Shown piece after piece: positions 1-352 of a stretch of DNA of 28,749 nt. Position 1 is the stretch's first letter. Every line of letters starts with the position of its first letter. Position numbers and translations under genes: made by a program. This DNA is from Escherichia coli (lineage in GTDB: Bacteria > Pseudomonadota > Gammaproteobacteria > Enterobacterales > Enterobacteriaceae), in NCBI RefSeq assembly GCF_003334355.1, contig NZ_QOWP01000041.1, one strand, 5' to 3'. The notes beneath the pieces are model-generated. The model made no database searches, was not told where the DNA came from, and saw nothing but the letters and a program-made list of their open reading frames with translations.

Positions 1-74
1 TATCGTGAGAGTAATTCATCGGCACGTTAAATCATATCAGGCGTAATACCACAACCCTTAAGTTAGCGCTTATG
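1..74. mobile_element. Terminal fragment of IS186 (element continues left of the window)
   Basis: Bases 52-74 (caacccttaagttagcgcttatg) match the IS186 terminal inverted repeat as I recall it, and 1-51 match adjacent IS186 internal sequence. The element ends 22 bp before the hokC stop, the same arrangement described for K-12. Based on recalled sequence, not a search. Confidence 0.6.
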
Positions 75-96
75 GGATCACTCCCCGCCGTTGCTC

Positions 97-249
97 TTAC
101 TCGGATTCGTAAGCCGTGAAAACAGCAACCTCCGTCTGGCCAGTTCGGATGTGAACCTCACAGAGGTCTTTTCTCGTTACCAGCACCGCCACTACGGCGG
201 TGATACAGATGACGATCAGGGCGACAATCATCGCCTTATGCTGCTTCAT
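97..249 (-). CDS. hokC: HokC (Gef) type I toxin, small membrane peptide, 50 aa
   Basis: The last 50 aa of the 97..339 minus-strand ORF read MKQHKAMIVALIVICITAVVAVLVTRKDLCEVHIRTGQTEVAVFTAYESE, a Hok-family sequence with a single transmembrane helix. Confidence 0.85.
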   Translation of the reverse strand: MKQHKAMIVALIVICITAVVAVLVTRKDLCEVHIRTGQTEVAVFTAYESE

Positions 250-306
250 TGCTCTCTTCTCCTTGACCTTACGGTCAGTAAGAGGCACTCTACATGTGTT
301 CAGCAT
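97..306 (-). CDS. mokC: MokC, overlapping reading frame that enables hokC translation
   Basis: Same frame as hokC, extended upstream to MLNTCRVPLTDRKVKEKRA...; hok/mok/sok architecture is established knowledge. Exact start is uncertain. Confidence 0.55.
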   Translation of the reverse strand: MLNTCRVPLTDRKVKEKRAMKQHKAMIVALIVICITAVVAVLVTRKDLCEVHIRTGQTEVAVFTAYESE

Positions 307-352
307 ATAGGGGGCCTCGGGTTGATAGTAAAATATCACTCGGGGCTTTTCT
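298..352 (+). ncRNA. sokC: Putative SokC antisense RNA (approximate position)
   Basis: Placed by positional analogy with K-12, antisense to the mokC start/leader. I could not identify a convincing promoter or terminator hairpin by eye, so coordinates are approximate. Confidence 0.3.

Follow-up and report, generated by a model that had tools for sequence, protein, structure and literature searches.

The Hok-family toxin gene hokC stands against an IS186 element at the edge of the Escherichia coli DNA analysed here (28,749 nucleotides of contig NZ_QOWP01000041.1, assembly GCF_003334355.1; hereafter the window), raising the question of whether this insertion is the one carried by the K-12 and B strains and what it does to the toxin messenger. 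A hokC gene with an adjoining IS186 is in itself a known and ordinary feature. The arrangement in the window very probably records a separate IS186 hit on the hokC 3′ hairpin, in the orientation opposite to that of K-12/B, through which the fold-back of the mRNA would be lost and the killing circuit disabled. The features on which the argument draws are given below in window coordinates.

1–74, minus strand: transposase-proximal (left) end of the IS4-family element IS186/IS421, cut by the window start and recognized by identity to MG1655 IS186A.
17–19, minus strand: insL start codon, first codons MNYSHD...
52–74, within the 1–74 element end: 23-nt terminal inverted repeat of IS186.
75–84: hokC-proximal copy of the 10-bp target-site duplication GGATCACTCC; the same 10-mer stands at the other IS end in ATCC 8739, PSS-12, MG1655 and REL606.
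75–89, minus strand: remnant of the GC-rich hokC 3′ UTR hairpin that is the IS186 target, with the intact form GGCGGGGAGUGAUCCCCGCC in IS-free genomes.
97–249, minus strand: hokC toxin ORF, 50 aa, from the ORF reading and the RefSeq annotation in identical genomes.
97–306, minus strand: overlapping mokC frame ending at the hokC stop, 69 aa, co-linear with MG1655 mokC (b0018) after offset.
247–399, minus strand: hokC mRNA 5′ leader with the SokC target region, from Rfam RF01794.
About 298–356, plus strand: sokC antisense RNA gene, from co-linearity with MG1655 sokC (16952–17010).
388–399, minus strand: tac element, from the tac–fbi pairing in the reconstituted IS-free mRNA.
406–411, minus strand: putative hokC −10 box TATAAT, read by eye, 7 nt upstream of the inferred +1 at 399.

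The hokC product matches the Pfam model HOK_GEF at 9.5e-24 and shares 49 of 50 residues with K-12 HokC, A22V being the sole change. The NCBIfam Hok subfamily model gives the same protein 46 bits, below its curated cut-off of 73, so that the family assignment of HokC rests on Pfam together with orthology. Upstream, the leader at 247–399 (minus strand) is matched over its full length by RF01794 at 122 bits against a gathering score of 59, and the sokC region folds into a strong stem-loop followed by a U-run (z = −5.57). A strict sigma-70 consensus scan of ATCC 8739 segment 1600–3500, which equals the window over window 1–420, called no promoter for hokC or sokC; for hokC this reflects the poor −35 region, and the TATAAT at 406–411 may serve as its −10 box. 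As far as the sequence can tell, hokC, mokC and sokC are all intact in the window, and the resemblance of the window to hokC and IS186 is not a product of chance. HokC is described as toxic when overexpressed, and antisense control has been reported for hokC (PMC3562002, PMC12214031, bioRxiv 10.1101/2025.08.07.668861).

Two further observations concern the same genes. RF01794 is named 'sok antitoxin' yet matches the strand of the hok mRNA leader, ending at the hokC AUG, with no match on the antisense SokC strand; the disagreement between name and matched strand recurs at other hok loci compared, including those of E. coli O104:H4. Additionally, the Tyr47 codon of HokC (109–111, minus strand) reads UAC followed by G in the context CUUACGAA, leaving the TadA-type A-to-I editing site intact; in K-12 this site is reported to be edited at 9%, recoding Tyr to Cys (PMC12214031).

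On the other side of the stop codon, window 1–74 is the reverse complement of the first 74 nt of MG1655 IS186A with 74/74 positions identical, and the gap between the IS tip at 74 and the hokC stop codon at 97–99 amounts to exactly 22 nt (75–96). The initial annotation, drawn from the letters alone, had described a Hok-family toxin ORF with an overlapping mok frame, followed 22 bp past the stop by an IS186 end. The ORFs with their Pfam match, the alignment and the count bear this anatomy out, and the leftward extension that it had proposed, made through relatives, reaches a full element. The window begins inside IS186, and the near-identical genomes of ATCC 8739 and PSS-12 served to establish how complete the element is and where the displaced fold-back element (fbi) lies. 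ATCC 8739, E. coli C, WG5 and many further genomes share window 1–420 at 100% identity, and the closest genome, PSS-12, shares window 1–14000 at 100.0%. ATCC 8739 carries at hokC a complete IS186/IS421 of 1339 bp with the transposase WP_001300563.1. The PSS-12 element measures 1338 bp and its transposase is annotated as frameshifted (2108–3219 of the PSS-12 segment), which may reflect either a true indel that inactivates the gene or a sequencing error in a homopolymer. Both genomes show GGATCACTCC as a direct repeat flanking IS186, followed by an 81-nt spacer (90 nt if the left copy of the 10-bp repeat is counted) and then the dnaJ stop codon. The spacer of ATCC 8739 carries 3 SNPs on this dnaJ side; decay after the insertion was considered as their source and rejected, the same haplotype being present in many IS-free genomes.

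The empty site in IS-free genomes is GGCGGGGATCACTCCCCGCC, a palindromic G4-N6-C4 hairpin in the hokC 3′ UTR; in the IS-free O157:H7 strain LSU61 the place of insertion reads ...GTGGCGGGGATCACTCCCCGCCGTTG..., a perfect hairpin of this form. RNA folding gives the intact target hairpin −18.7 kcal/mol (z = −3.7) and the half that persists in the window −4.1 kcal/mol (z = +1.0). An IS-free transcript rebuilt from the window haplotype, with its 5′ end as defined by Rfam and its 3′ end at the terminator, is 399 nt long. In its minimum-energy fold, nt 1–12 (GGGUGCUUGAGG, tac) pair with nt 352–364 (CUUCAACGCACCC, fbi) with a probability of 0.01 of being unpaired, while the target hairpin is predicted at nt 311–330 and the terminator hairpin with its U-run at nt 378–395. 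IS186 enters after mRNA nt 325, and fbi lies 26–38 nt beyond that point in IS-free genomes. In the IS-bearing ATCC 8739 and PSS-12, the hairpin is split, and fbi and terminator lie 1.34 kb off, across IS186 and beside dnaJ. The end pairing, 3′ hairpin and terminator that stand together in the IS-free reconstruction are accordingly absent as a set from the window. Moreover, transcripts fused to IS186 in either orientation are predicted to fold at their 5′ end as the 3′-truncated mRNA does, with nt 1–8 paired to nt 52–58.

Fold-back between tac and fbi is the published architecture of hok mRNAs, in which the full-length mRNA is closed by fbi and not translatable until that element is lost in 3′ processing (PMC9841398). 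In K-12 gef/hokC, both fbi and processing are believed to be disrupted by IS186 (PMC3562002; PMC12214031). The initial annotation had suggested that the insertion removes a downstream fold-back element needed for hok mRNA processing and translation. Comparison with IS-free hokC loci identifies that element, predicted to pair with the mRNA 5′ end, and places it beyond the IS, so that this part stands; 'needed for translation' is loose wording, since fbi blocks translation before processing (PMC9841398). Displacement of fbi is supported at the level of sequence, and its functional outcome would follow from the published model.

The sequence of events that we propose begins with transposition of IS186 into the G4-N6-C4 hairpin of the hokC 3′ UTR, 22 nt past the stop, with duplication of 10 bp. 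The transposase gene would have come to lie co-directional with hokC, in an event separate from the K-12/B insertion at the same base in the opposite orientation. Such an insertion would destroy the 3′ hairpin and shift fbi and the terminator 1.34 kb away, while the toxin ORF, mokC and sokC would stay intact. The resulting hokC transcripts would lack the tac–fbi end pairing that holds full-length hok mRNA closed, stable and inert, and would probably be folded from the outset like the 3′-processed form, the one that the published hok/sok model treats as translatable and accessible to Sok. Binding by SokC and degradation would then leave no stable reservoir of toxin mRNA, disabling the post-segregational or stress-triggered killing circuit. 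The literature calls for caution here, since K-12 gef mRNA is reported to be made still and to be controlled by its antisense RNA (PMC3562002). A scan for terminator-like sites on the minus strand between hokC and insL (on ATCC 8739 sequence, identical over window 1–420) found none, and in the window orientation hokC transcription would be expected to read into insL as a sense transcript. It may be that a constitutive hokC transcript feeds the transposase gene.

The hairpin that receives IS186 at hokC has counterparts elsewhere, and the G4-N6-C4 target pattern was derived here from six IS186 sites. At hokE of K-12, IS186 sits in the homologous hairpin with a 10-bp duplication. E. coli O104:H4 carries two tandem hokE copies with an IS186 in each (737–2075 and 2589–3927 of the segment), in opposite orientations, both having duplicated the 10 bp GGATTGCTCC. 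The homologous hairpin is likewise occupied, with 10-bp duplications, in a plasmid hok and at a hokD-like locus, and the displaced fbi was recovered at both. In the hokE reconstruction the end pairing is absent from the minimum-energy fold, and only a short complement to the 5′ end, AGGCACCU, was found by eye. Beyond hok genes, MG1655 IS186C in the nupC–pdeA spacer sits in the terminator-like hairpin GGGGATAATTCCCC with the duplication GGATAATTCC, fitting the G4-N6-C4 pattern of all the hok sites. Such motifs are rare: a search of the 28.7-kb window for exact G4-N5-7-C4 sites returned none except the split site itself. An 11-mer at window 671–681, GTTAGCGCTTA, equals the IS186 tip and was tried as a solo IS end; it was set down to chance, being polymorphic in MG1655 and O157 and scoring below shuffles in local alignment.

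Among 5,426 complete E. coli genomes, the junction of the window type was matched in 938–953 (at least 80% of the query covered; about 16%) and that of the K-12 type in 819–841 (about 12%), both being upper bounds that include paralogue junctions at about 91% identity. The hokD-like and plasmid junctions (~91% identity) still reach full coverage with the 300-nt junction queries and so are not excluded; the spread tables suggest ~830–920 records of the window type and ~610–710 of the K-12 type. The empty site is present in 3815 of the 5,426 genomes, about 70%. These are counts of genomes and not of events, and laboratory K-12 and B derivatives inflate the K-12-type class.

Hok/sok loci were reported as insertion hot spots for mobile elements in 2019 (bioRxiv 10.1101/527788). 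A reading that we consider probable, with a little less assurance than the account of hokC itself, is that the conserved GC hairpin in the 3′ UTR of hok mRNAs forms a dedicated natural landing pad, making IS186 a recurrent and orientation-independent disarmer of Hok loci across E. coli. Its hits would comprise hokC (at least two, in both orientations), hokE (in both orientations), a plasmid hok and a prophage-like hok, each of them probably uncoupling fbi. Part of this reading is already published, as IS elements at hokA/C/E (1999) and as the hok/sok hot spot (2019).

The orientation of IS186 separates the window from K-12 and B. In MG1655 and REL606, the element occupies the same base with the same duplication, but there insL lies on the plus strand and is transcribed towards hokC. 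The window, ATCC 8739 and PSS-12 instead have insL on the minus strand, reading the same way as hokC. Apart from 2 mismatches in 1339 positions, the ATCC 8739 copy is IS186A exactly inverted, and K-12 genomes match the window junction from base 52 only, the start of the shared inverted repeat, because their IS186 is inverted there. IS186 is documented to enter a single site at the lon promoter either way round, and opposite orientation there served as proof that an insertion was independent (PMC3045373).

The flanks add a second line of comparison. Against the window, MG1655 has 3 differences in the left spacer and 4 within 75–430, including the one behind HokC A22V. REL606 combines the left-flank/spacer haplotype of the window with the IS orientation of K-12, which leaves room for recombination histories. 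Some genomes without the IS match the reconstituted window locus at 100% over 424 nt. From hokC to nhaR, the mismatch counts against the window are 11 in 2876 nt for each of the IS-free strains A29 and G3/10, 18 in 2773 nt for REL606 and 39 in 2272 nt for MG1655; by its flanking haplotype, the window is no nearer to K-12/B than to the IS-free strains. Although it equals the window throughout 1–420, ATCC 8739 shows 30 mismatches over 75–2950, more than the 11 of IS-free A29 and G3/10, a pattern in the alignment that suggests recombination breakpoints near nhaA–nhaR. Further along, the interval between nhaR and rpsT does depart from the K-12 layout, as the initial annotation had noticed: at window ~3000–7500, the PSS-12 annotation has a fimbrial gene and espX1, both frameshifted, and an usher gene that is truncated.

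From the shared state at hokC the same annotation had suggested shared ancestry with the K-12/B lineage, and this inference is not supported, given the inverted IS186, the recurrently used site and the locally closer IS-free strains. The insertion is not a clean shared-derived character, and at least two events, possibly more, are needed. In its most specific form, common descent would mean one ancestral insertion shared with K-12 and B, after which the IS of one lineage flipped where it stood, for instance through recombination of its 23-bp terminal repeats. The identical base and 10-bp duplication in the window, MG1655 and REL606, the difference of only 2 in 1339 positions between the IS copies, and the left-flank haplotype that REL606 shares with the window all speak for such a history. 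The same duplication is, however, to be expected of a site-specific element with a palindromic target, and the orientation is opposite while the terminal repeats span just 20–23 bp. We know of no established mechanism for the precise in-place inversion of a single IS, which further weakens this history. It also has to contend with IS-free haplotypes nested locally between the window and K-12/B, with the occurrence of both orientations at hokE, and with the documented independent entry of IS186 into one site in either orientation (PMC3045373); we regard a single inverted insertion as improbable. From orientation, hot-spot behaviour and local haplotypes together, we infer an independent insertion.

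Whether that separate insertion mattered to the cell is a further matter, on which two other explanations bear. IS186 might be a neutral passenger, present merely by target match at a chromosomal hokC that is inert with or without it. The IS-free chromosomal hokC of ECOR24 is reported to give neither post-segregational killing nor rifampicin activation (bioRxiv 10.1101/2025.08.07.668861), and an insertion may therefore have cost the locus little activity; the hokC of the window carries no private mutations relative to IS-free alleles and no sign of decay or compensation, and IS186C occupies a similar hairpin unrelated to hok. The tac–fbi pairing, hairpin and terminator are nevertheless well conserved in the 70% of genomes that are IS-free, which argues for constraint on the 3′ end, the toxin is harmful on overexpression according to the literature, and the predicted structural effect on the mRNA would hold regardless. 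Neutrality is thus a possibility to be kept in view, though we lean against it. Conversely, the insertion might have been selected, either by silencing a harmful toxin or by driving insL through read-through from the hokC promoter. An IS at hokC in about 30% of complete genomes, from at least two events, is compatible with selection, as is the lack of a terminator-like site from hokC to insL on the minus strand, and Durrant et al. raised the possibility of an adaptive benefit from disrupting hok/sok (bioRxiv 10.1101/527788). Target preference by itself accounts for the recurrence, however; both orientations are found, and hence insL read-through is not required, and the counts are of genomes rather than events in a collection rich in laboratory K-12 and B derivatives. 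Selection for disarming or exploiting the locus is accordingly an unlikely explanation. The reading that we prefer, a separate IS186 hit that uncouples fbi from hokC, has consequences for how such loci are used. IS186 beside hokC is unusable as a lineage marker, given that this hot spot is hit recurrently and that the orientation is unlike that of K-12/B. The locus also provides a sequence-level account of how a single insertion would strip both the protective 3′ hairpin and the fold-back element from a type I toxin mRNA. A hokC locus so altered is present in about one in three sequenced E. coli, which is relevant for models of persistence or toxin–antitoxin function that involve chromosomal hok genes. 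What is modestly new here lies in the orientation difference, its expected consequence for insL read-through, and the breadth of IS186 recurrence at hok hairpins.

Four known systems set the locus in context. The nearest is gef/hokC–sokC of K-12 with IS186A (MG1655 15387–16731), described since 1999 by Pedersen and Gerdes, as cited in PMC12214031 and PMC3562002. It shares with the window the insertion base, the GGATCACTCC duplication, the transposase protein and the displacement of fbi and terminator; insL is convergent with hokC there, whereas it is co-directional in the window, and the flanking haplotype differs from that of MG1655. At K-12 hokE with IS186B and at other hok paralogues, IS186 lies in the GCGGGGAT..CTCCCCGC hairpin just past the hok stop with a 10-bp duplication, and IS186B has the same orientation as the window element; these are different genomic sites, with identity of only about 91% across the junction. 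The lon promoter likewise offers IS186 a GC-rich target with a G-run and a C-run and is struck recurrently, independently and in either orientation (2001 work, as cited in PMC3045373 and PMC3861542), but there the insertion destroys a promoter with a clear phenotype, whereas at hokC it cuts a 3′ UTR. Finally, hok/sok of plasmid R1 (PMC9841398) has in common with hokC the toxin ORF, the overlapping mok, the antisense Sok and an mRNA of ~400 nt, with the corresponding end pairing predicted in the 399-nt IS-free hokC mRNA. Unlike R1, hokC is chromosomal, and its activity in post-segregational killing is reported as weak or absent even for IS-free alleles; in the window, with fbi displaced, the end pairing that characterizes the plasmid system would be impossible.
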